Virus record (IMG/VR): IMGVR_UViG_3300037789_000017
Span: 1-30,414 of that record
Reading direction: 5' to 3' (one strand)
DNA from: a virus
Lineage: Duplodnaviria; Caudoviricetes
Length of the DNA: 30,414 bases
Both the position numbers and the translations under genes were made by a program. A model generated the notes under the pieces. That model was not told the DNA's origin, did not search any database, and was given only the letters and a program-made list of their open reading frames with translations. This document shows, piece after piece, positions 2,314 through 16,626 of the stretch; the first letter of the stretch is position 1, and each line of letters opens with the position of its first letter.

Positions 2314-5043
2314 ATGGCAACACCGTATGTTGAGTACAACGGTGACGGATCGACGTCGCTGTACGTATTCAGTTTTGGGTACATCGAGGCGGACCACGTC
2401 AAAGTCACTGTTGATGGGGCTGATGTACCGTTTACTTGGGTCGGCCCAAGCTCTGTGCAGCTCACTGCAGCACCCGCAAGTGGAACACTTGTGCGTATCT
2501 ACCGCGAGACGCCGCGTGAACGGCTCGTCGATTTCACGGATGGCACCTCTGTCCGCGCTGACGATCTCGACCTTGCGTCAACCCAGATGTTGTACATCTC
2601 CGAAGAAGTCGAGGTCGATGTGTCGGTAGCGCTCCGGCGTGGTGCTGATGGTGCATATGATGCAGGTGGCCTGCGCGTGACGAACGCAGGGGCACCTACT
2701 GAGGACACTGACCTCGCAACTCGAGGTTGGGTGAACACCGCGTTCGACAGTACGCTTGTGCTTGCTCAAGCAGCGCAGGCAGCCGCTGAGGCATCTGCGG
2801 ATGCTGCGTTCGCCGCTTCTGTTGAGGGCCGCAACTTCCCGTCCCGCAGCGCAATCGTCGCGTACCTCGGTGGTCTATCGGCTTCTGAGGCAGCTGCTGT
2901 CCCTGCTGGCGCAGTCTGGGCGTCCCCTGAGTGCAGCTTTTTCAAGCTTCCTGCAGGACATTCCGCGTATGGTCAGGACTACGTCCAAGACCTGCCGGGG
3001 TTCTACCCTTACGGGCGTGTCCACACACCGCAACACTACGGTGCAGCAGGCGACGGAACGACCGACGACACGCTTGCGATCCGAAGCTTGATCGCTGGTG
3101 CGCCATCTGGTGGTCATATCCACTTCGCGGCGGCAGACTCTGGGGTCTACCTTGTGGATGGTCTCGTGACTCCGGGCACGACTGTGTCGATGAGTGCGTT
3201 CATTGTCGACAAACCGCTGACCGTCACTGGTGTAAAGACCGGACTCATCCGCATCAAGGGCGGAGCAGGTGCTAGCTTCTTCGATGCAGGCACACGCGGT
3301 AATGTCTTCCTTCTGGACAGCTCGGACATCATGTTCCTCGGGGTCCACATGGACCTGAACACCGACAACCTCTACGGAACAGAGATCGACGGTACGCGTT
3401 ACTACGCGGAGAATGCTGCAGGAGATGCTTCCATCGGCGTCACCGGCGTGAAGCTGTATCGTTCCGACTTTACTGCCCACACCACGAACGTCATCGTGGA
3501 GCGTTGTCAGTTCTACCGCGTGTCGTTTGCTGCTGTGTCCCTCAGTGGGCGCAAGCTCGAAACAGGCGCACCGGACCCAATCGCGTACTACAACGATAAC
3601 ATCTTCGACACCGCAGGTACGATCTCCAACTGCCACGTCCGGTATAACTACACGGAAGGCGGTCAGCGTAGTACCCTTGTGCTCACCGGAGGTGCACGTC
3701 ACTGCACGATGAACAACAACTTCTGCTACAACGCACACTGGGCCGCTGTTCGGCTGTATCTGATGTGCTACGCGTGTCAGATGAACGACAACTACGTCAT
3801 GTACGATGGCGCGACAGTCGATCCTACTCTCGTCCAGACAGATGAACTCGCTATCGAGCGCCCCGGAAACATTCTCCCGAGGCTTCTCCGCATCGGTCAC
3901 GGGAGCAGGCTAGCTGGTACAGTGCGGTACTGTGAGGCCCGCAACAACCGTCTCGTCGTCGTTAATACTGACGCGCTTGACGACAGCCTGACTGACGCCA
4001 CTATCCCTCTCGGACGCGTTGTTCTTCGTATGGAGAATGGCACAGAAGGGAACGTAATCGAGGGCAACGTCATCTCTGGCAGTGCGAAGATCGCTGCGTG
4101 GATTGGTCAAAGCACAGGCACGAGCTTCTGTTTCAACCACCTCTACGGCGCTGACTACGACGGTCAGTTCCAACGTGGGCTTGTCTTCGGCGGTGACCAG
4201 ACCGGCGGTAAATTCAACGGCAACACTGTCAACGGGTTCACACGCGGGATCACAACTGACACCACAGAGACGCTCGACAACTGTCAGATCAATGAAAATG
4301 ACATGACAGGAAACAGCGTTGACGTGCGTCTTGAAGGTGCCTTCAACAACTCCGAGTTCATGCGGAACAAGGGCACGGGCGCAGGGACACTCCTGAGCTT
4401 GACTGGTACAGGCTCTGGCAATGACATCAGCTACAACAACGGCGTATGCACGACCGATGTCATCTTTGCTTCTGGTATCCAAGACAGTCGCTTCAAGGCC
4501 AACAGAGGAAGTGGTTACTCCGGCTACGGAGCACACCTGCACGGTAACTGCACCGGCTCGTCCGTGTCCGATAGCTTCTTCCGCTCCGCTTCTGGGACGG
4601 CTGGGGTGAACATCTCCGACGCCGCATCTGTCGGTGTTCGCGTGTTCAACAATGACTTGCTTGGTTCTGGTACTGACCAGTTCTTGGACAGCGGTACAGA
4701 CACTGAGTCTGACATCTGGGCGTCACTTGCTGACGGTCAGGTTGTACGTCTTCCGGGCGGTCTTCAAGTGTGTACCCGTCAGGTTGAGTTCGACACCGCT
4801 TTGGCGTCCACTCCTGTCTCGTTTGCGTATCCGAAAGGGTTCAACGGGACCGTGCTGTTCTCCAGCGCTAACGTGGAGGAAGGTGTTGGCGGTGCAAACG
4901 TCGGGGCTATCAACTCTCTCCACCAGACGCTCACGTGTGAGACAACCACCTCAGCGTGGAAGATCCGCGCGTCATCCTACACCGGAGGTGATATTGGCAC
5001 CATGACCGTCAAGCTGTTCGCCATCGGCGTTTCCAATCCGTAA
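2314..5043 (+). CDS. Tail fibre/tailspike with T7 gp17-like N-terminal anchor and beta-helix (pectate-lyase-like) body
   Basis: N-terminus 'YNGDGSTSLYVFSFGYIEADHVKVTVDG...VRIYRETP...VDFTDG' resembles the gp17 N-terminal domain. 'PQHYGAAGDGTTDDTLAI' is the usual beta-helix start motif, followed by Asn/Gly-rich repeats and a C-terminal 'RLPGGLQVC...YPKGF...FAIG' module. Confidence 0.9.
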   Translation: MATPYVEYNGDGSTSLYVFSFGYIEADHVKVTVDGADVPFTWVGPSSVQLTAAPASGTLVRIYRETPRERLVDFTDGTSVRADDLDLASTQMLYISEEVEVDVSVALRRGADGAYDAGGLRVTNAGAPTEDTDLATRGWVNTAFDSTLVLAQAAQAAAEASADAAFAASVEGRNFPSRSAIVAYLGGLSASEAAAVPAGAVWASPECSFFKLPAGHSAYGQDYVQDLPGFYPYGRVHTPQHYGAAGDGTTDDTLAIRSLIAGAPSGGHIHFAAADSGVYLVDGLVTPGTTVSMSAFIVDKPLTVTGVKTGLIRIKGGAGASFFDAGTRGNVFLLDSSDIMFLGVHMDLNTDNLYGTEIDGTRYYAENAAGDASIGVTGVKLYRSDFTAHTTNVIVERCQFYRVSFAAVSLSGRKLETGAPDPIAYYNDNIFDTAGTISNCHVRYNYTEGGQRSTLVLTGGARHCTMNNNFCYNAHWAAVRLYLMCYACQMNDNYVMYDGATVDPTLVQTDELAIERPGNILPRLLRIGHGSRLAGTVRYCEARNNRLVVVNTDALDDSLTDATIPLGRVVLRMENGTEGNVIEGNVISGSAKIAAWIGQSTGTSFCFNHLYGADYDGQFQRGLVFGGDQTGGKFNGNTVNGFTRGITTDTTETLDNCQINENDMTGNSVDVRLEGAFNNSEFMRNKGTGAGTLLSLTGTGSGNDISYNNGVCTTDVIFASGIQDSRFKANRGSGYSGYGAHLHGNCTGSSVSDSFFRSASGTAGVNISDAASVGVRVFNNDLLGSGTDQFLDSGTDTESDIWASLADGQVVRLPGGLQVCTRQVEFDTALASTPVSFAYPKGFNGTVLFSSANVEEGVGGANVGAINSLHQTLTCETTTSAWKIRASSYTGGDIGTMTVKLFAIGVSNP

Positions 5044-5562: not shown

Positions 5563-7338
5563 ATGAGCCTAGAGAAAGACACGCCGTGGTGGCGTGAAGA
5601 ATACCCTGAGAAGGATTGGAAGATTTTTGAGGACTTCCGGTACTTCTTGATCCTCGTGTGGCGGCACCTCCTCCTCCCTGACCCGACATGGGTACAGATG
5701 GACATCGCCACATACCTCCAACACGGGCCACGACGCCTTATCATCGAGGCGTTCCGTGGCGTCGGCAAGAGCTGGATCACATCAGCATACGTGTGCTGGC
5801 GGCTCCTGCGTAACCCTCAGCTCAAGTTCATGGTGGTCTCGGCCTCCAAGGATCGTGCTGACCAGTTCTCGATCTTCACACAGCGTCTCATCAGTGAGAT
5901 GCCGATCCTCCAACACCTCCAGCCCCGTCCTGAGCAACGAAGCTCGATGATCGCCTTCGATGTCGGCCCCGCCAAAGCAGACCATTCCCCATCGGTGAAA
6001 TCCGTGGGCATCTTCGGTCAGCTCACTGGCTCCCGCGCTGACGAGATCATTGGCGACGACGTGGAGGTCCCCAACAACTCCGAGACCCAAGGCCAACGTG
6101 ACAAGCTGGCAGAGCGTGTGAAGGAGTTCGACGCCGTGCTCAAGCCCGGTGGACGCATCAAGTACCTCGGCACCCCGCAGACCGAGGAGAGCCTGTACAA
6201 CGAGCTGCCCAACCGTGGCTATGCTGTGCGTATCTGGCCTGCCCGCCTGCCTGCCAAGGACGTTCTCGCTACGAGCTACGGCGACCGGCTGGCACCGAGC
6301 ATCGTGGCCATGCTGGAAGACGGAGACTCTCCACGTGCTCCCGTCGATCCTACTCGCTTCGATGACGACGACCTCCTCGAGCGGGAGATGTCCTATGGAC
6401 GCTCAGGCTTTGCCTTGCAGTTCATGCTCGACACGAGGCTCTCTGATGCCGACAAGTATCCGCTCAAGCTGTCCGACCTCATCGTCACGTCCCTCAACGT
6501 GGACACAGCCCCTGAGCGCCTGATCTGGTCTGCTGATCCTCAGTACAGACTGCAGGAACTCCAGTGCGTCGGCCTCAATGGCGACCGCTACCACCGCCCA
6601 GCGGCAACGCCCGGTGATTGGGTGAAGTACGAGGGCAGCGTCATCGCTATCGACCCCTCTGGTCGGGGCAAGGACGAGACCACCTACGCTGTGGTCAAGA
6701 TGCTCAACGGCTTCCTCTTCGTGACGGAGGCTGGTGGTATGCAGGGTGGCTACGACGACCACGTCATGGACGCCCTCGCACAGATCGCCAAGCGTAACAA
6801 GTGCAACCTCGGGATCATCGAGAGCAACTTCGGTGACGGCATGTTCACCAAGCTCTTCACTCCGCACCTCAAGAAGGCCGGATACCCCATGACCCTCGAG
6901 GAGGTCCGCTCCAACCAGCAGAAGGAGAAGCGGATCATCGACACACTCGAGCCTGTCATGAACCAGCACAGGCTTGTCGTCTGTCCCAGCGTGATCAAAC
7001 ACGACCAGCAGTCAGTCAGGGACTACCCGCCTGAGCAAGCGCTCAAGCGACAGCTCATGTACCAGATGAGCAGGCTGACGAAAGAGCGTGGCTCACTCGC
7101 ATACGACGACCGTGTAGACGCTCTGGCTATGGCCGTGGCTTACTGGGTCGAGCAGATGGGTCAGGACGAGGAGCAGAAGGCTGCAGAACGTAGCTCCCGC
7201 ATCCTCGAAGCTGAACTGGCGCTCTGGCACGGTGAAGTAGGCCTCAGCTTGGACGCTCTGGCTATGGGTGCAAGCCCTGAAAAGGCCATGGAAATTGCCA
7301 TGAATGAAGGCTCAGGAGGCCTCTGGGCAAGTACCTGA
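5563..7338 (+). CDS. terL: Terminase large subunit (T7 gp19-like)
   Basis: Walker A 'AFRGVGKS', 'GQLTGSRAD...DDVE', nuclease 'IDPSGRGKDET' and 'DDRVDALA' motifs. Confidence 0.96.
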   Translation: MSLEKDTPWWREEYPEKDWKIFEDFRYFLILVWRHLLLPDPTWVQMDIATYLQHGPRRLIIEAFRGVGKSWITSAYVCWRLLRNPQLKFMVVSASKDRADQFSIFTQRLISEMPILQHLQPRPEQRSSMIAFDVGPAKADHSPSVKSVGIFGQLTGSRADEIIGDDVEVPNNSETQGQRDKLAERVKEFDAVLKPGGRIKYLGTPQTEESLYNELPNRGYAVRIWPARLPAKDVLATSYGDRLAPSIVAMLEDGDSPRAPVDPTRFDDDDLLEREMSYGRSGFALQFMLDTRLSDADKYPLKLSDLIVTSLNVDTAPERLIWSADPQYRLQELQCVGLNGDRYHRPAATPGDWVKYEGSVIAIDPSGRGKDETTYAVVKMLNGFLFVTEAGGMQGGYDDHVMDALAQIAKRNKCNLGIIESNFGDGMFTKLFTPHLKKAGYPMTLEEVRSNQQKEKRIIDTLEPVMNQHRLVVCPSVIKHDQQSVRDYPPEQALKRQLMYQMSRLTKERGSLAYDDRVDALAMAVAYWVEQMGQDEEQKAAERSSRILEAELALWHGEVGLSLDALAMGASPEKAMEIAMNEGSGGLWAST

Positions 7339-8193: not shown

Positions 8194-8222
8194 TTTACAT
8201 CTCGTTCGCCAAGCTGCATAAC
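8194..8222 (+). promoter_or_regulatory. Host sigma70-type early promoter
   Basis: -35 TTTACA (8194-8199), 17-bp spacer, -10 CATAAC (8217-8222), with A-tracts upstream resembling an UP element. A -10 lacking the final T is common in alphaproteobacteria. Confidence 0.65.
8208..8220 (-). promoter_or_regulatory. Putative operator TATGCAGnnTGGC overlapping the early promoter
   Basis: Reverse complement reads TATGCAGCTTGGC; the same motif recurs at 6738, 9438, 12509 and 16611. Confidence 0.55.
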
Positions 8223-8228
8223 TGTCTT

Positions 8229-8600
8229 ACCGAAACGACGGGGCGCCACGCTCCACCGGGTCGGGATTCCGAGGGGCCTGAGCGCAAGCCCGCCCTGAGG
8301 TGGCAACCGGTGCGGCAAGCAAGGCCCGGCGGGAAGGCCCTTCGATATGGCCCGAGATAGGTGGAAGGCCTTACGCGGTTCAAGGCGGGGTGACCTGCAG
8401 GATACGCGGCAGACATAGCGGGACGAACCCGCACCATAGCAGGGGCCAGCCGCCCGAAGACATATCACCGGCTGGGCGTCGAAACCGAACGCGGCATTTG
8501 AAGCAAAGTGTCGCCCAGAGGGACTAGGCGCAGGGGAGTGGGACCGCCTTGATAGGGGCATCCACAATGGCCATGCAGAGCCGCTTCCACTTGTTCGGTC
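8229..8600 (+). ncRNA. Putative large structured leader RNA of unknown class
   Basis: No credible ORF. Nested complementary segments: 8361-8366/8585-8590, 8375-8379/8580-8584, 8380-8388/8544-8552, 8394-8398/8439-8443, 8418-8422/8428-8432, 8446-8452/8469-8475, 8512-8515/8527-8530, 8254-8259/8307-8312. The 5' end is inferred from the promoter. Confidence 0.55.
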
Positions 8601-8665
8601 CAGAGCTATGCCATGTGGCATTTGTCGCTCTGCTGATGAGGCCCAGAAGGCCGAAACCGAACAAG
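8590..8665 (+). ncRNA. Hammerhead ribozyme, type III (cleavage after C8600)
   Basis: Stem III CTTGTTCGG 8590-8598/CCGAACAAG 8657-8665; GUC site; stem I CAGAGC 8601-8606/GCTCTG 8627-8632; core CTGATGA 8633-8639; stem II GGCC/GGCC; GAAA 8653-8656. Confidence 0.93.
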
Positions 8666-8676
8666 GGGAGAGACCC

Positions 8677-9435
8677 ATGGCCAAAGCTGGCAAAACCTTC
8701 ATCATCTACGACGGTCCGTCATTGCTGGATGGGGAACGTATCATCGTCCTAGCTCAACAGGGCAGCACGAACCGCAAGACTGGCGGTATGATGCAGACCT
8801 ATATCCTTCGTGCTGACATGGACCCGATCACCGCAAGCCGCACCGGGGCTGATTTCTCGATCTGTGGCAACTGTCCACACAAGGGCAAGGCACACGACGG
8901 GGACAGCGGACAAGCCAAGGATCGCACCTGCTACGTTACGCTGGCCCATGGTCCGCTTGGCAAGTGGAAGGCATGGCAGCGCGGGGCTTACGAGGCTATC
9001 AACGGCCATGCCGCCATTGCTGCAGCCGGGGCCGGTCAGATGGTCCGCATTGGCACCTATGGCGACGGGGCCGCAGTGCCCTCTTACATCTGGGACAGCT
9101 TGTGCTCCGATGCTACCGGCTGGACCGCCTACACCCACCAGAACGGGGTGGACGGGGCCGCGACCGATCCTAAGCGCTACATGACCAGTGCTGAAAGCGA
9201 AGGCCACGCACAAGCTGCATGGGCCATGGGTCAGCGGACGTTCCGTGTGATCGCTGACGTTGCTGACGTGGTCAAGGGCAAGGAAATCTTGTGCCCTGCC
9301 AGTGAGGAAGCTGGGATGCGGACCACCTGCGAGAAATGCGGTCTCTGCGCTGGGGCAGCGGTCAAGGCGAAGTCGATTGCGATTGTCGCCCATGGCACCG
9401 CCAAGCGCAAAGCGAAGGCCCTTGTTGCGGCGTGA
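8677..9435 (+). CDS. First early gene: Cys-rich, probable Fe-S/radical-SAM-like enzyme
   Basis: ATG 8677 with SD GGGGAG, 252 aa. Motifs 'CGNCPH...CYV', 'VRIGTYGD', 'YTHQ', 'CPAS...CEKCGLC'. The family call is from memory of similar phage proteins. Confidence 0.7.
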   Translation: MAKAGKTFIIYDGPSLLDGERIIVLAQQGSTNRKTGGMMQTYILRADMDPITASRTGADFSICGNCPHKGKAHDGDSGQAKDRTCYVTLAHGPLGKWKAWQRGAYEAINGHAAIAAAGAGQMVRIGTYGDGAAVPSYIWDSLCSDATGWTAYTHQNGVDGAATDPKRYMTSAESEGHAQAAWAMGQRTFRVIADVADVVKGKEILCPASEEAGMRTTCEKCGLCAGAAVKAKSIAIVAHGTAKRKAKALVAA

Positions 9436-9436
9436 T

Positions 9437-9453
9437 CTATGCAGACTGGCAAA
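9437..9453 (+). promoter_or_regulatory. Putative operator, 17-bp exact repeat of 16610-16626
   Basis: CTATGCAGACTGGCAAA, intergenic in both places. Confidence 0.6.
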
Positions 9454-9520
9454 GGCGAAACCGTCCAGCGATGGGCGGTCTGGCCGGGATGGGTTCCCGG
9501 TCACTGATGAGCCAACCCAT
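9454..9520 (+). ncRNA. Hammerhead ribozyme, type II with pseudoknot (cleavage after C9480)
   Basis: Stem II GGC 9454-9456/GCC 9511-9513; GAAA 9457-9460; stem III CCGTCCA-GCGA-TGGGCGG; GUC site; stem I TGGCCGGGA/TCCCGGTCA; CTGATGA 9504-9510; tail AACCCAT 9514-9520 complements ATGGGTT 9489-9495. Confidence 0.93.
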
Positions 9521-9533
9521 AGGAGAGAAAACC

Positions 9534-10538: not shown

Positions 10539-10600
10539 TGACGCATCGCCTGTAGCCCTCGCCTGAGGGGGCTGCAGCACCATGCGCCAACGCATGAGCT
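10539..10600 (+). repeat. Structured intergenic element copy 1 (RNase III-site-like)
   Basis: TGACGCATCG + hairpin + CCATGCGCCAACGCATGAGCT; the flanks are identical in copy 2. Confidence 0.7.
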
Positions 10601-10622: not shown

Positions 10623-10949
10623 ATGAGCACCAACAAAATCCGCACCCGTCGCCGCACCATCCGCAAGCTTCTGGATGGTCTCGAGGGGCGCTTTGTGTCT
10701 GTCACGTTCGCCAAGAAAGATGGCACCATCCGCAAGCTGACGATCCAGCCCCACGCTGTCGCCACACACCTCGCCGTGAACCCTTCACAGGCCGGTCTCA
10801 AGGCTGCCCGCACACGTCTCGAGCGTTACCCGAACCTGCTTCCCGTCTATGACGTGGCCGCTGGCCGGATCAAGTCGATCAACCTCGACAAGGTGTCTTC
10901 GATCCGCGTGGACAAGTCCGAACTGCTTGTCATGGAGGGTGCTGCCTGA
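10623..10949 (+). CDS. SH3/Sm-like beta-barrel protein (WYL_2-like)
   Basis: 'FVSVTFAKKDGTIRKL...VYDVAAGRIKSINLDKV' pattern; SD GAGG. Confidence 0.7.
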   Translation: MSTNKIRTRRRTIRKLLDGLEGRFVSVTFAKKDGTIRKLTIQPHAVATHLAVNPSQAGLKAARTRLERYPNLLPVYDVAAGRIKSINLDKVSSIRVDKSELLVMEGAA

Positions 10950-11006
10950 CGCATCGGTGTCCGCCCTGCCAGCCGGGGCGGCATCCCATGCGCCAACGCA
11001 TGAGCT
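10947..11006 (+). repeat. Structured intergenic element copy 2 (RNase III-site-like)
   Basis: TGACGCATCG 10947-10956 + a different hairpin + CCATGCGCCAACGCATGAGCT 10986-11006. Confidence 0.7.
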
Positions 11007-11835: not shown

Positions 11836-12075
11836 ATGAGTATGAACGTGAGAACTGTGTGCTTCCCTTTTGTTGGGGCTTTGGCTATCGAAACGAGGGG
11901 ACCATCATTCCAGTGGCTTAGGCCGCTGGTCGAGAGAGACCCGGAACAGGGAACAAGCATCAACTGCGGCAGAGTGGTGGTCTACATCACCTCATGCAGC
12001 GCGATGCAAAAGGAGAGAGAGAATGTCCGTAACTTCGACGCGCTTCTTGGCGAGGGTGGCGGCCCACTTCCTTAG
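11836..12075 (+). CDS. Hypothetical protein upstream of the regulator
   Basis: 79-aa ORF filling the gap; overlaps the next gene by 53 nt; weak SD. Confidence 0.4.
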   Translation: MSMNVRTVCFPFVGALAIETRGPSFQWLRPLVERDPEQGTSINCGRVVVYITSCSAMQKERENVRNFDALLGEGGGPLP

Positions 12076-12355
12076 GATCGACCCGGAAATGACCGTGTCG
12101 CGGGCGCATATCTTCCTACTGGTTCACCAGAAGGGGGAATGCACGGTGAGAGACCTCTGCACCAGCACAGGCTTGAACCAGTCCACCGTAGCACGACAGA
12201 TCGCTCTGCTGCACGACAAGCCACACCGGGGGGTGAAAGCAGGACTGGAGCTGGTGACGCTGCAGCCTGACCCGGAAGAGCCGCGCCGCATGTTGATCAG
12301 CCTGTCGCCCAAGGGCAAGCGCCTGATCGCGGAGCTTCAATCACTAGCTGACTGA
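12023..12355 (+). CDS. MarR-family winged-helix regulator (candidate repressor)
   Basis: SD AAGGAG, ATG 12023. 'TVRDLCTSTGLNQSTVARQI' HTH and 'DPEEPRRMLISLSPKG' wing; adjacent to the integrase. Confidence 0.85.
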   Translation: MSVTSTRFLARVAAHFLRIDPEMTVSRAHIFLLVHQKGECTVRDLCTSTGLNQSTVARQIALLHDKPHRGVKAGLELVTLQPDPEEPRRMLISLSPKGKRLIAELQSLAD

Positions 12356-12368
12356 GAGGAGAGAGACC

Positions 12369-13412
12369 ATGTCCAAGCAGCTACCCAAAGGCATCCGCAT
12401 GAGGGGTGCCAAGTACTTCGTTGATGTGACGGTCAGCGGGAACCGCCACACTGCCACCTGCGAGACGCTTGAGGAAGCCATTGCTACTCGCCTTCGCTTG
12501 CGTGGTGCTATGCAGGTTGGCCTTGATCCACGCACACCACGGGCCAACGCCAAGGGCTGGACCCTGCAGGAAGCGCTCGACAAGGTACTGTCCCTGCCCA
12601 AGCCTGAGGGCTGGCGTGGCTGTAGCTACGAGAACATCGCCCGCATGAACGTAGAGAGTGCAATCGAGGTCATGGGTCCTGACGTGCCACTGGCATCCAT
12701 CGACCGGGACATGATCGACCGTTGGCTGGCCGCGTGTGAAGCCAAAGGCAACAGTGACAGCACGATCAACCGCAAGATCAGCGCCCTGTCCAAGGTGCTC
12801 AAGACTGCCGTCGCTTTCGGGGGTCTGGCTGCCATGCCACACATGCCGAAGCTCAGGAAGGAAGCTGTTGGCAGGATCAGGCAGATCAGTGAGGCCGAAG
12901 AGCGTTCGATGCTCGACACGTTCGTCCAGCTCGGGATGCTCGACCACGCCGCTGCTGTCACTGTACTGATCGACACCGGCCTCCGCTGCTCTGAGCTGTG
13001 GAACGTGCGGGCCGAGGATGTTGACCTCAAGTCGGGGGTCATGCTGGTCTATGGGGCCGAGGGCAAGGGCACGAAGAACGGCAAGTACAGGTCGGTGCCT
13101 ATGACCAAGCGGGTGAAGCAGATCATGGGACGCCGCGCCGGTCAACCTCAGCCTTTCCCCTACGACAACACGTGGCTGCGCCACCCATGGGATCGGGTGC
13201 GTGGGATGATGGGTCTCAGCGGGGACAAGAACTTCGTGCCCCACGTCTGCCGCCACACCTGTGCTTCCCGTCTGGTCAAGGCCGGGGTCTCCCTGCCTGT
13301 GGTCAAGGACTGGCTCGGTCATGCCTCGATCACGACGACGATGAAGTACGCACACCTCATGCCACAGGACCTGATGAGGGCCGTGGCTGCACTGGAAGGA
13401 GACGCAGCATGA
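12369..13412 (+). CDS. int: Tyrosine recombinase / phage integrase
   Basis: Catalytic R (TGLRCSE), K (TKNG), HxxR (HVCRH), LGH and Y (TMKY); N-terminal arm-binding-like segment. Confidence 0.95.
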   Translation: MSKQLPKGIRMRGAKYFVDVTVSGNRHTATCETLEEAIATRLRLRGAMQVGLDPRTPRANAKGWTLQEALDKVLSLPKPEGWRGCSYENIARMNVESAIEVMGPDVPLASIDRDMIDRWLAACEAKGNSDSTINRKISALSKVLKTAVAFGGLAAMPHMPKLRKEAVGRIRQISEAEERSMLDTFVQLGMLDHAAAVTVLIDTGLRCSELWNVRAEDVDLKSGVMLVYGAEGKGTKNGKYRSVPMTKRVKQIMGRRAGQPQPFPYDNTWLRHPWDRVRGMMGLSGDKNFVPHVCRHTCASRLVKAGVSLPVVKDWLGHASITTTMKYAHLMPQDLMRAVAALEGDAA

Positions 13413-13609
13413 GCATCATGTATGGTGGGTACACCGCCGAACAGCTCGACAAGATGATCACCCATTACGAGGTGACTCAACACCTGCACGACACGCAGGC
13501 GTGGAAACACATGGCCATGGCTGCGGAGCTGGAGGTCAAGCGCCGGGAACTCGCCCGCATCGAGAACGAAATCACCGCACTCGTGAATGCCCTTGATCGC
13601 CGCGCATGA
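13409..13609 (+). CDS. Small coiled-coil hypothetical protein (66 aa)
   Basis: ATGA overlap with the int stop, SD AAGGAG. Confidence 0.6.
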   Translation: MSIMYGGYTAEQLDKMITHYEVTQHLHDTQAWKHMAMAAELEVKRRELARIENEITALVNALDRRA

Positions 13610-13679
13610 GAAGCGTATCTACTTGCAGCGTTTGTTGCGGACGTTGTTGCAGATGATGCAGCAACACGTTGCATATGTT

Positions 13680-13768
13680 GCGGGTGTGGTGGAACTGGTA
13701 GACACGCGGGATTTAGGTTCCCGTGCCTTTTCAATGGCTTGCAGGTTCGATCCCTGTCACCCGCACCA
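13680..13768 (+). tRNA. tRNA-Leu (anticodon TAG), 89 nt, CCA encoded
   Basis: Acceptor GCGGGTG/CACCCGC + ACCA; D-loop TGGTA; anticodon arm CGGGA-TTTAGGT-TCCCG; long variable arm; T arm GCAGG-TTCGATC-CCTGT. Confidence 0.95.
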
Positions 13769-13798: not shown

Positions 13799-13834
13799 CG
13801 TTCACCACCTCGCATCGGTGGCTGGAACACCAAC

Positions 13835-13868
13835 AAAGCCTCGGCATATTCGCCGGGGCTTTTTCTTT
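13835..13868 (+). terminator. Rho-independent terminator after the tRNA
   Basis: AAAGCCTCGGC-ATATTC-GCCGGGGCTTTTTCTTT. Confidence 0.85.
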
Positions 13869-13943
13869 CGCTCGACATTCTCCAATCCGCATAAGATTGG
13901 AACGATCCGCAACATCTGTTGCTGCAACACGAGGAATACACGC

Positions 13944-16607
13944 ATGAACCACACCCTCCGTCGCCCCGAAGAGCAACTGGCTGCAACATACGGGGAGGCA
14001 CTGGCTGCCGAGCTGGAGCTGGAAAGCAAGATGGTCTCGCTCGGTCGGGATCAGGTACGCAAGGCCGTTGCTGCCGCCCGTGAGCGGGGCAACGAGAGTG
14101 GCACAGGCTATGGTCGCACACTCGTCGGCATGTCCGTGGTCACCATCGCCGAAGCCATCGAGCGCTTCAAAGAGAAGGCCAAGCAGGGGGCAGGACGCCG
14201 CCACATCGCACTCAAGTACCTCGATCAGGTAGACGCTGACGTCGCGGGCTTCATCGCCATGAAGGTGGTGGTCGATAGCCTGACCGGGAAGCGTCAGCTC
14301 CTGCAGCGTGTCGCCATCCACATCGGTCGCCGCATTGAGGACGAGGTGCGCTTCACCCGGTTCAAGGATACCGACGCCCGTATGTATAACCGTGCCCTCG
14401 AACGTGCCAAGAAGGGTGGGTCCTACCACCGCAAGAAGAGCACCATGGCTGGCTATGACCGCCGCTTCAACGAAGACGAGTGGACGCCGTGGCCGGAGCA
14501 GGATTGTCTCCACCTCGGGGCAGCTCTGGTTGACATGATCCAGCAGACTGGTCTCGTCGAGATTGGCGATGAGGTGCAGACACGCCGTGACACGGTGAAG
14601 ATACTGCAGCCCACGCAGCGGCTGATGGAATGGATCGAAGCTGAGTGCGCCCGCTCTGAGATGCTGCACCCTGCCCACATGCCGATGGTTGTGAAGCCTC
14701 TCGACTGGACTGACCCGTTCAACGGTGGCTACCTGACGCAGGACGCACAAGGCCGCAACGCATTGGTCAAGTCGCCCAACATGAATTACCTGTCTGAGCT
14801 GGCCGACCACGCAGACCAGATGCCGATGGTCTACGAGGCGGTGAACGCACTGCAGGCTACCCGGTGGCATATCAACCGCGACGTGATGCAGGTGATCGCC
14901 AAGATGTGGGACCTCGGCCACCCTTTGGCTGGTCTGCCCTCCCGCGAGGACATTCAGTACTGCCCTTGCCCTGTCTGTGGTGAGAGCATCCCTCTGCCGG
15001 GGCTTCACACCAAGACGACAGGAGGTGAACACGCCTGCCTCGAGGACAACGAGGAAGCGCTGCGTGAGTGGAAGCGTGAGGCCCACCATCACCATGCCTC
15101 TAACGTGTCCATGCGATCCAAGCGTCTGGCCCTAGCCAAGGCTCTCCGCATCGCTGAGACCTACGCTGACTACGAGGCGATCTACTTCCCGTACCAGCTC
15201 GACTTCCGGGGCCGGGTCTATGCCATCCCCTCGTTCAACCCGCAGGGTAACGACGTGACCAAAGGTTTGCTCCAGTTCGCTGACGCCAAGCCTATCGAGG
15301 ATGGTCTGGCTGCTGGCTGGCTGGCTATCCACGGTGCCAACGTCTTCGGCTACGACAAGGCAGCGCTGGCTGATCGCATCGTGTGGGTCGAAGAGCGTGA
15401 GCAGGAGATCGCAGCATGTGCGGCTGACCCTTTCAGCAACACCCTCTGGCAGGAGGCCGACAAGCCATGGCAGTTCCTCGCCTTTTGCTTTGAGTGGGCA
15501 GGCTTCATGGAGCAAGGCTTTGGCTACCAGTCACGCCTCGCTGTGGCTCTGGACGGGAGCTGCTCTGGCATCCAACACTTCTCTGCCATGCTGCTCGATG
15601 AGACCGGGGGCAAGGCGGTCAACCTGCTACCATCTGAGGTGCCTGCTGACATCTACCAGCGGGTTTGTGACAAGGTCGTGGAGAAGCTTGAACGCATCGG
15701 TGGTGAATTGAGTTCCACCATTGCAGCTAAAGCTTGTTCTTCAGATGCCTCCTCCTCCTCCCTGAAAGGAGGAGAAGCTGAAGCTATTGCTGAAGCTATA
15801 GCTGTTCAAGCTGAAGCTAGAGGTTCTTGGGACGAGGAGGTCTACGCTGCAGCTTGGCTGCGCATGGGACTCAGCCGCAAGACCACCAAGCGTCAGGTCA
15901 TGACCCTGCCTTACGGGAGCACACGCTATAGCTGCCGTGACTACACGGTCGAATGGTATCGGGACCAGCTCAAGGCTGGCTTCACTGACCCGTTCGGTCA
16001 GGGCCAAGCGTTCGGTGCCTGCTTGTTCCTGTCCGACTTGATCTGGGACAGCATCGGCGAGGTGGTCGTAGCTGCACGTGACGCTATGGGCTGGCTGCAG
16101 AAGTGCGCCAAGGTCGTAGCCAATGAAGAGCTGCCGGTATACTGGACCACGCCTGTCGGGTTCCGTGTCATGCAGCAGTACAAGAACACCAGCAGCCGCC
16201 GCGTGAAGACCAAGCTCGGCGATGCGGTCGTGAAGCTGTCCCTCGCAGAGGAGAAGAGCACCATCGACAAGCGGCGGATGGCCAATGCTATCAGCCCGAA
16301 CTTCGTCCACTCGATGGACGCCACGCACCTCGTGATGAGCGTGTGCTACGCCAAGGACAATGGCATCAACCACTTTGCCATGATCCATGACAGCTTCGGC
16401 TGCCATGCAGCAGACACGAACATGCTGGCTGCCTGCCTGCGTGAAGCGTTCGTCGATCTCTACAGTGACATGGACGTGCTCGAGGACTTCCGTCAGCAGA
16501 TCATCCGTCAGGTTGATGAAGGCGAGAAGGACACAGTCCCAGCGATCCCACCCAAGGGCAACCTGTGCTTGGATGAAGTTCGTGGCTCGGACTTTTTCTT
16601 TGCCTAG
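13944..16607 (+). CDS. T7-type single-subunit DNA-directed RNA polymerase
   Basis: ATG 13944 with SD GAGGA. Motifs DFRGRVY, 'DGSCSGIQH' (A), 'RKTTKRQVMTLPYG' (B), 'PNFVHSMDA', 'IHDSF' (C) and C-terminal DFFFA. Confidence 0.98.
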   Translation: MNHTLRRPEEQLAATYGEALAAELELESKMVSLGRDQVRKAVAAARERGNESGTGYGRTLVGMSVVTIAEAIERFKEKAKQGAGRRHIALKYLDQVDADVAGFIAMKVVVDSLTGKRQLLQRVAIHIGRRIEDEVRFTRFKDTDARMYNRALERAKKGGSYHRKKSTMAGYDRRFNEDEWTPWPEQDCLHLGAALVDMIQQTGLVEIGDEVQTRRDTVKILQPTQRLMEWIEAECARSEMLHPAHMPMVVKPLDWTDPFNGGYLTQDAQGRNALVKSPNMNYLSELADHADQMPMVYEAVNALQATRWHINRDVMQVIAKMWDLGHPLAGLPSREDIQYCPCPVCGESIPLPGLHTKTTGGEHACLEDNEEALREWKREAHHHHASNVSMRSKRLALAKALRIAETYADYEAIYFPYQLDFRGRVYAIPSFNPQGNDVTKGLLQFADAKPIEDGLAAGWLAIHGANVFGYDKAALADRIVWVEEREQEIAACAADPFSNTLWQEADKPWQFLAFCFEWAGFMEQGFGYQSRLAVALDGSCSGIQHFSAMLLDETGGKAVNLLPSEVPADIYQRVCDKVVEKLERIGGELSSTIAAKACSSDASSSSLKGGEAEAIAEAIAVQAEARGSWDEEVYAAAWLRMGLSRKTTKRQVMTLPYGSTRYSCRDYTVEWYRDQLKAGFTDPFGQGQAFGACLFLSDLIWDSIGEVVVAARDAMGWLQKCAKVVANEELPVYWTTPVGFRVMQQYKNTSSRRVKTKLGDAVVKLSLAEEKSTIDKRRMANAISPNFVHSMDATHLVMSVCYAKDNGINHFAMIHDSFGCHAADTNMLAACLREAFVDLYSDMDVLEDFRQQIIRQVDEGEKDTVPAIPPKGNLCLDEVRGSDFFFA
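15708..15725 (+). promoter_or_regulatory. Putative phage RNAP promoter inside the RNAP gene
   Basis: TTGAGTTCCACCATTGCA, followed by the AGCT repeat tract. Confidence 0.65.
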
Positions 16608-16609
16608 AC

Positions 16610-16626
16610 CTATGCAGACTGGCAAA
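16610..16626 (+). promoter_or_regulatory. Putative operator after the RNAP stop
   Basis: CTATGCAGACTGGCAAA, identical to 9437-9453. Confidence 0.6.

Follow-up and report, generated by a model that had tools for sequence, protein, structure and literature searches.

Two hammerhead ribozymes of different topology bracket a DUF7227-related gene in the early region of a T7-like phage

The early region and its two hammerheads

The window, meaning the whole 30,414-nt stretch of DNA analysed, carries a T7-type RNA polymerase gene (13818-16607) whose best matches, at 39-42%, are in LUZ100 and the roseophages CRP-113 and CRP-171. An HTH-like gene, an integrase gene and a tRNA gene lie directly upstream (12016-13765). 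The same gene order, minus the tRNA, precedes the RNA polymerase gene of CRP-113, and this arrangement suggests a temperate T7-like phage. Given the polymerase gene and the gene order upstream of it, the region from about 8229 is read as the early region of a T7-like phage; it is preceded by a large ORF (5563-7338), which we take, partly from a matching order in CRP-403, to be the terminase. A promoter-like site was read directly from the sequence (Table 1); a consensus promoter scan found no promoters, and this site did not pass it. In two related loci, L004 and L005, a similar promoter-like arrangement precedes a CGAAA(C)GACG start. The -10 element of the site lacks its final T, as it does in relatives, and -10 elements without this T are typical of alphaproteobacterial promoters. 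The inferred host group is Roseobacteraceae, the family named in the tree output, because the closest cellular copy of the gene at 8677-9435 (79%) is in a Shimia genome; among 401 genomes of this family, one contains the gene.

The gene encodes a protein of 252 aa. Its coordinates and the 880-nt length of the RNA expected to be excised around it were both correct on recomputation, and its earlier designation as the first early gene applies to this genome; in several relatives, small genes precede it. The protein matches phrog_2554 with an E-value of 6e-68 and DUF7227 (PF23872) with 21.4 bits, below the 27-bit Pfam cut-off; many close homologues bear PF23872, and the nearest Atlas cluster is named DUF7227. 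There are 3,108 homologues and 152 matching phage records, and a literature search found no paper naming DUF7227.

The structure model of the protein (pLDDT 89) links it to DUF7227 and GP88 proteins. Seven cysteines are invariant across 35 diverse sequences (C63, C66, C85, C206, C218, C221 and C224), and the protein probably binds Fe–S. The radical SAM CxxxCxxC motif is absent from it. The top four solved-structure matches (VIA), to PFL-activase, QueE (twice) and viperin, have Z values of 3.4-4.0 and rmsd values of 4.5-5.1 over 130-146 aligned residues, below the reliable range; a PDB sequence search returned nothing, and Foldseek against the PDB returned nothing at E ≤ 0.001. The modelled resemblance to a radical-SAM fold is weak, and a radical-SAM or SAM-depleting role may be followed as a lead. 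By analogy with ardA in Perreault et al. (2011), our guess would be an Fe–S protein whose early action is aimed at host defence or metabolism.

Hammerheads were sought with a descriptor covering three topologies on both strands of the window, which gave exactly two hits, one with its predicted cut at C8600 (type III) and one at C9480 (type II). Among 200 dinucleotide shuffles, 2 gave any hit at a minimum stem of 3 bp and none at 4 bp, and none gave a hit totalling at least 19 bp. Two complete sense-strand hammerheads with intact cores and different topology, as proposed in the preliminary description, were thus confirmed by descriptor hits, fold and a match to Rfam family RF02276.

Table 1 Features of the early region in window coordinates
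Feature	Position	Strand	Remarks
Promoter-like site, host polymerase type	8194..8222	+	TTTACA, 17 nt, CATAAC; read from sequence; inferred start near 8229
Non-coding leader, predicted 5' cleavage product	8229..8600	+	About 372 nt; two modules, at about 8443-8485 and about 8527-8588
Stem III extension	8584..8670	+	8584-8588 pairs with Shine-Dalgarno bases 8666-8670 in uncut RNA
Type III hammerhead	8590..8665	+	Predicted cut C8600/C8601; descriptor, fold, covariation; compensatory stems in the homologues from L005, L115 and L116
Predicted excised mRNA	8601..9480	+	880 nt; stem I hairpin at the 5'-OH end, stem III hairpin at the 2',3'-cyclic phosphate end; from topologies and known chemistry
DUF7227/GP88-related protein gene	8677..9435	+	252 aa; phrog_2554; 7 invariant Cys
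Type II hammerhead with loop I-tail pseudoknot	9454..9520	+	Predicted cut C9480/U9481; RF02276
Motif A copy 1, irregular hairpin	10539..10600	+	Before WYL_2-like gene 10623-10949
Motif A copy 2	10947..11006	+	Directly after WYL_2-like gene

The upstream element contains the conserved core strands (CUGAUGA 8633-8639, GAAA 8653-8656, GUC 8598-8600) and three stems in type III order: a 10-bp stem III (8590-8599/8656-8665), stem I (8601-8606/8627-8632) and stem II (8640-8643/8649-8652). When 8229-8760 was folded whole, each stem pair had a probability of 0.85-1.0. All four type III copies share a UAU opening loop I and CAG...A in loop II, the two loops of a putative tertiary contact. Comparison with Rfam models, put forward earlier as a check, separated the two elements. 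Against Hammerhead_3 (RF00008), the upstream element scores 18.2 bits, below the gathering score of 48.5, and is misaligned on its 5' side; because this match is weak, its identity rests on descriptor, fold and covariation, and it is type III by topology and not a member of the RF00008 alignment.

The downstream element scores 46.9 bits against RF02276, above the gathering score of 37 (E 8e-7), and combines CUGANGA, GAAA and NUH cores with type II stem order and a pseudoknot. Its stem II (9454-9456/9511-9513) adjoins GAAA (9457-9460); the stem III hairpin spans 9460-9479, with GUC at 9478-9480, and the stem I hairpin (9481-9503) leads into CUGAUGA (9504-9510). The pseudoknot joins loop 9490-9494 to 9515-9519, with 5-7 bp in the window, and the next Shine-Dalgarno sequence (9521-9525) follows directly. 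Type II homologues with a covarying pseudoknot occur in L005, L115, L116, L043, L121 and L038, and in L115, L116, L043 and L121 the pseudoknot is formed by different complementary pairs. An Rfam scan of the whole window returned the tRNA and the type II hammerhead and nothing else.

Within the leader, module 1 (8443-8485) also occurs in L195 (3704-3733) and L200, and module 2 (8527-8588) in L200; Rfam found no family in the leader besides the hammerhead, and the modules had no match. They are possibly antitermination or regulatory RNAs. Nearly identical modules are present in other phage or prophage leaders, directly downstream of an early promoter.

Distribution among relatives and in RNA contigs

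We collected 195 loci with the gene, 158 of them distinct once duplicates and fragments had been removed, and divided these into a close set of 11 relatives (protein identity at least 69%) and a distant set of the other 147. Hammerheads were counted with a relaxed descriptor scan, which returned 1 hit when run on 877,891 nt of reversed sequence as a control; the strict descriptor misses variant cores in L115, L116 and L038. Relaxed-scan hits in L015 and L016, 1.6 kb away and chance-like, were left out of the counts.

Only part of the close set keeps both ribozymes. The same single-gene bracket is present in L005 and L115 (2/11), and the bracket of L116 (1/11) spans three genes, its type III hammerhead lying 569 nt upstream with two small ORFs intervening. 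In the remaining eight, there is either a downstream type II hammerhead alone (L043, L121 and L038) or no hammerhead at all (five relatives, including the closest, L195). Measured by distance, a type II is found no more than 150 nt downstream in 6/11 and a type III no more than 100 nt upstream in 2/11. In all 147 distant relatives, the 700 nt upstream and the 150 nt downstream are free of hammerheads, with flanks being short in 15 of them; L006, L091 and L138 in this set have one further off. Rfam, applied to 20 of the closest loci, added one further type II and found no twister, pistol or HDV-like ribozyme replacing the missing hammerheads. As five close relatives and the entire distant set lack a nearby hammerhead, ribozyme processing is dispensable.

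Where hammerheads are present, stems I-III and the pseudoknot are maintained through different base pairs (4 type III and 7 type II copies), and three type II cores bear an extra nucleotide. The extra nucleotide lies in or after the CUGANGA core, at 1229 in L115, 1788 in L038 and 3285 in L116. Hairpins of 17-30 pairs, a size that suits RNase III, stand just before the gene in L043, L038, L116 and L118, all of which are without a hammerhead directly upstream; this observation, a lead, was made without a shuffle control. Such a distribution is one of exchangeable processing sites and not of an obligate pair. The protein tree is a quick tree, and no clade claim is based on it. In L195, a ribosome-binding cassette of about 25 nt is repeated, at 3972-3996 before this gene and at 4743-4771 before the next.

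RNA from a strain about 92% identical is represented in two estuary metatranscriptomes (X1 and X2), which may be one campaign and consist of assembled contigs without a DNA run. Assembly loses rare forms, strong hairpins alone are able to break cDNA coverage, and uncovered stretches were not counted as absence. The leader contig has an identical 5' start in both runs and ends at 8593 in X1 and 8569 in X2; the X1 contig thus stops 7 nt short of the predicted cut and then continues with 14 adapter-like letters, presumably sequencing adapter. Gene contigs start at 8675 or 8685 and end at 9454, and the next X2 contig, which contains the type II core strand, starts at 9493, 12 nt past the second cut. 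Neither X1 nor X2 has a contig spanning either ribozyme. The breaks at both ribozymes fit, weakly, cleavage in vivo.

Proposed processing of the early transcript

Hammerhead cleavage after GUC yields 5'-OH and 2',3'-cyclic phosphate ends. From the sequence, fold, covariation and distribution of the two elements, we infer that the early polycistronic RNA is probably self-processed at both into a linear single-gene mRNA, with cuts at 8600/8601 and 9480/9481 freeing the 880-nt species. The self-excised monocistronic mRNA of the preliminary description is retained as a well-supported prediction, for which intact cores and covarying stems argue and with which the contig breaks in the related strain are weakly consistent. 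Type III stem I would stay on its 5'-OH end and type II stem III on its cyclic-phosphate end, and these terminal hairpins would confer resistance to exonucleases and to 5'-monophosphate-stimulated decay. The type II element would additionally supply the next mRNA with a hairpin at its 5' end; this may account for the placing of type II in intergenic slots and of type III after a non-coding leader. The cut leader could remain bound through the 15-bp stem III.

Protection by the 5'-OH, suggested earlier, is plausible in part: RNase E can enter directly, independent of the 5' end (PMC2948425), so that protection would be only partial and the gain in stability uncertain. Independence from host nucleases, likewise claimed, may apply to this gene at most and not to the operon, which has two RNase III-sized hairpins of another kind downstream.

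The purpose of the cuts would be that of the RNase III sites of T7, the uncoupling and stabilization of early mRNAs, with the sites acting as swappable modules for which relatives have long hairpins or nothing. T7-like phages are the textbook case of an early polycistron processed by RNase III. The early region of T7 has five such sites (PMC3867540). As in T7, an early polycistron made by the host polymerase would be cut intergenically before ribosome-binding sites, leaving terminal hairpins; unlike in T7, the predicted cuts are made by RNA catalysis, with no host enzyme at these two sites, and leave 5'-OH and cyclic-phosphate ends in place of T7's 5'-phosphate and 3'-OH.

A single-gene hammerhead bracket is not new. 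Perreault et al. (2011; PMC3088659) described and tested it in prophages: that paper reports hammerheads flanking single genes, including Agrobacterium ardA and examples from Azorhizobium and Clostridium scindens, proposes single-gene mRNAs and documents cleavage in vitro and in E. coli. With at least two sense-strand hammerheads flanking a gene in a phage operon, the present locus is of the clustered prophage type of that study, which it resembles in bracketing one gene or a short block, in its pseudoknotted type II and in the variable identity of the gene. It differs in its carrier, a T7-like phage that encodes its own RNA polymerase and an integrase, and in having a DUF7227-like gene inside the bracket. 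A layout known in this form since 2011 limits the surprise. Our literature search, which was not exhaustive, found no report of hammerheads in T7-like or roseobacter phages, and the main text of a 2026 ribozyme preprint makes no mention of phage.

Type II hammerheads that are nearly identical (84% over about 65 nt) also lie between early genes of the Streptomyces phages Issmi and Spernnie. These phages are unrelated; their arrays each hold many copies of type II (6 and 7 Rfam hits), and a type III was not found in them. The type II copies of Issmi (L034) and Spernnie (L035) are unannotated in the records, and Spernnie has a pair back to back (1805-1871 and 1873-1933). In Desulfovibrio cells, cleavage by type II hammerheads linked to phages is on record (PMC8782182), engineered 5' ribozymes are covered in PMC6993053, and PMC6765202 lists the purpose of bacterial and phage self-cleaving ribozymes as unresolved. 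With hammerheads, long hairpins or nothing around the same gene, the relatives offer a natural comparison for stability, translation and independence from host enzymes.

Four other accounts of the ribozymes were weighed. The type III element might serve mainly as a translation gate, its stem III hiding the Shine-Dalgarno sequence until cleavage and leader release and so delaying or tuning the first protein. In the precursor, Shine-Dalgarno bases 8666-8670 are paired with a probability of 0.99, and after the cut and leader release the opening cost is down to 5.8 kcal/mol in the window (12.7 before) and to 2.0 kcal/mol in L115 (11.1 before); the change is small in L005 (4.6 to 3.5 kcal/mol) and L116 (3.6 to 3.8 kcal/mol), no drop exceeds 1.6 kcal/mol at 37 °C in 7 type II cases, and any benefit requires the long duplex to be released. 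A primary gating role is therefore unlikely, and with the Shine-Dalgarno sequence paired in 2 of 4 type III cases, gating would be a local refinement at most.

It is considerably less likely that the first cut serves to free the structured leader of about 370 nt as a functional small RNA, with the mRNA as a by-product. The leader does have two modules common to other phages and forms a separate contig with the same 5' end in both runs. Against this, L195 has module 1 without a hammerhead, L005 and L115 have the hammerhead with no module 1 match at up to 3 mismatches, and the downstream ribozyme is left unexplained.

Engineered ribozyme-flanked circular RNAs are ligated by RtcB. The preliminary description suggested that host RtcB could ligate the excised RNA into a stable circular mRNA. 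A reverse ribozyme reaction might also serve. The ends have the established chemistry for RtcB, the junction in the window would restore part of the type III substrate strand (five letters), and the strict bracket is kept in 2/11 relatives. Retrozymes offer a parallel, as two ribozymes excise an RNA with ligatable ends; these are eukaryotic and the ligase is general (PMC7229834), whereas in the likely host family RtcB is rare. It was detected in 27 of 201 genomes (about 5 strong near-full-length matches), some of which may be incomplete and whose link to the phage is an inferred host, and was not found in the two genomes that harbour the gene; controls gave a signal in 10 of 14. Neither run contains a 3'-to-5' back-joint, in contigs that stop short of the ends and drop rare forms, and Perreault et al. 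(2011; PMC3088659) looked for circular or spliced products and detected none. The pair is not kept as a unit, the downstream ribozyme alone being as frequent as both together (3/11 against 3/11), and both mRNA ends lie in or adjoin hairpins. Circularization is accordingly considered unsupported and highly improbable.

Equally little credence is given to the view that the ribozymes are active but near-neutral mobile spacers of little consequence, swapped among phage early regions: distribution on the quick protein tree is patchy and unrelated Streptomyces phages have a nearly identical type II, but compensatory changes preserve the cores, stems and predicted tertiary contacts, and every element lies on the sense strand and immediately ahead of a ribosome-binding site.

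Motif A hairpins downstream

Further along the same operon, two copies of an irregular hairpin of about 55 nt, termed motif A, flank the WYL_2-like gene (Table 1). The motif has covarying stems, is placed after a stop codon and ahead of the next ribosome-binding site, and has no Rfam match. Ten copies from nine loci share a 17-pair irregular hairpin in which 96.5% of positions are paired, and both sides have changed in 6 pairs, a level reached in 0/500 shuffles; five of the ten copies were found by a pattern that fixes the basal sequence, which makes their conservation in sequence circular. With a covariance model, four further, divergent copies were recovered in L332-L334, and 4 of 150 family genomes had matches, of which three were new; several of the copies found in this way alter both sides of the basal stem. 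Besides the window, the loci with motif A include L005 (4496-4548), L324, L325, L332-L335, L337 and L340-L342, with multiple copies in several unrelated phages. An exact 20-mer of the motif had no match, a loose pattern and blastn against phage records gave chance matches only, and a search with the WYL-like protein gave one weak locus.

Of the four contigs downstream of motif A in X1 and X2, three share their first letter, which lies some 11 nt beyond the internal loop of the 3' arm and just short of the motif's 3' end, and one starts 4 nt later; the 11-nt offset resembles the 12 nt seen at the type II hammerhead. One X2 contig reads through copy 2. The helix of RNase III sites measures about 20 bp (PMC3867540), and motif A, with 17 pairs, has the form of such a site: an irregular helix on this scale, an internal loop and an intergenic position. 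On these structural grounds, motif A is more likely an RNase III site than a new ribozyme. A bolder reading, which we hold to be improbable but somewhat less so than the rival accounts above, is that the early transcript is diced by RNA alone: the hammerheads would frame the first gene, and motif A, as a class of self-cleaving ribozyme recurring between early genes of unrelated phages, would frame the WYL-like gene, with a cut in the 3'-arm internal loop near 10985. Motif A, which is uncatalogued, is a more novel lead than the hammerhead bracket and could be a new processing element.

Two further stretches of the window were recorded. A long hairpin at 13620-13680, directly before the tRNA gene, is a possible further processing site. 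After the stop of the DUF7227-like gene, the segment 9429-9450 resembles 16606-16626, which follows the RNA polymerase gene; the two share about 15 letters, perhaps as a phage promoter or processing signal.
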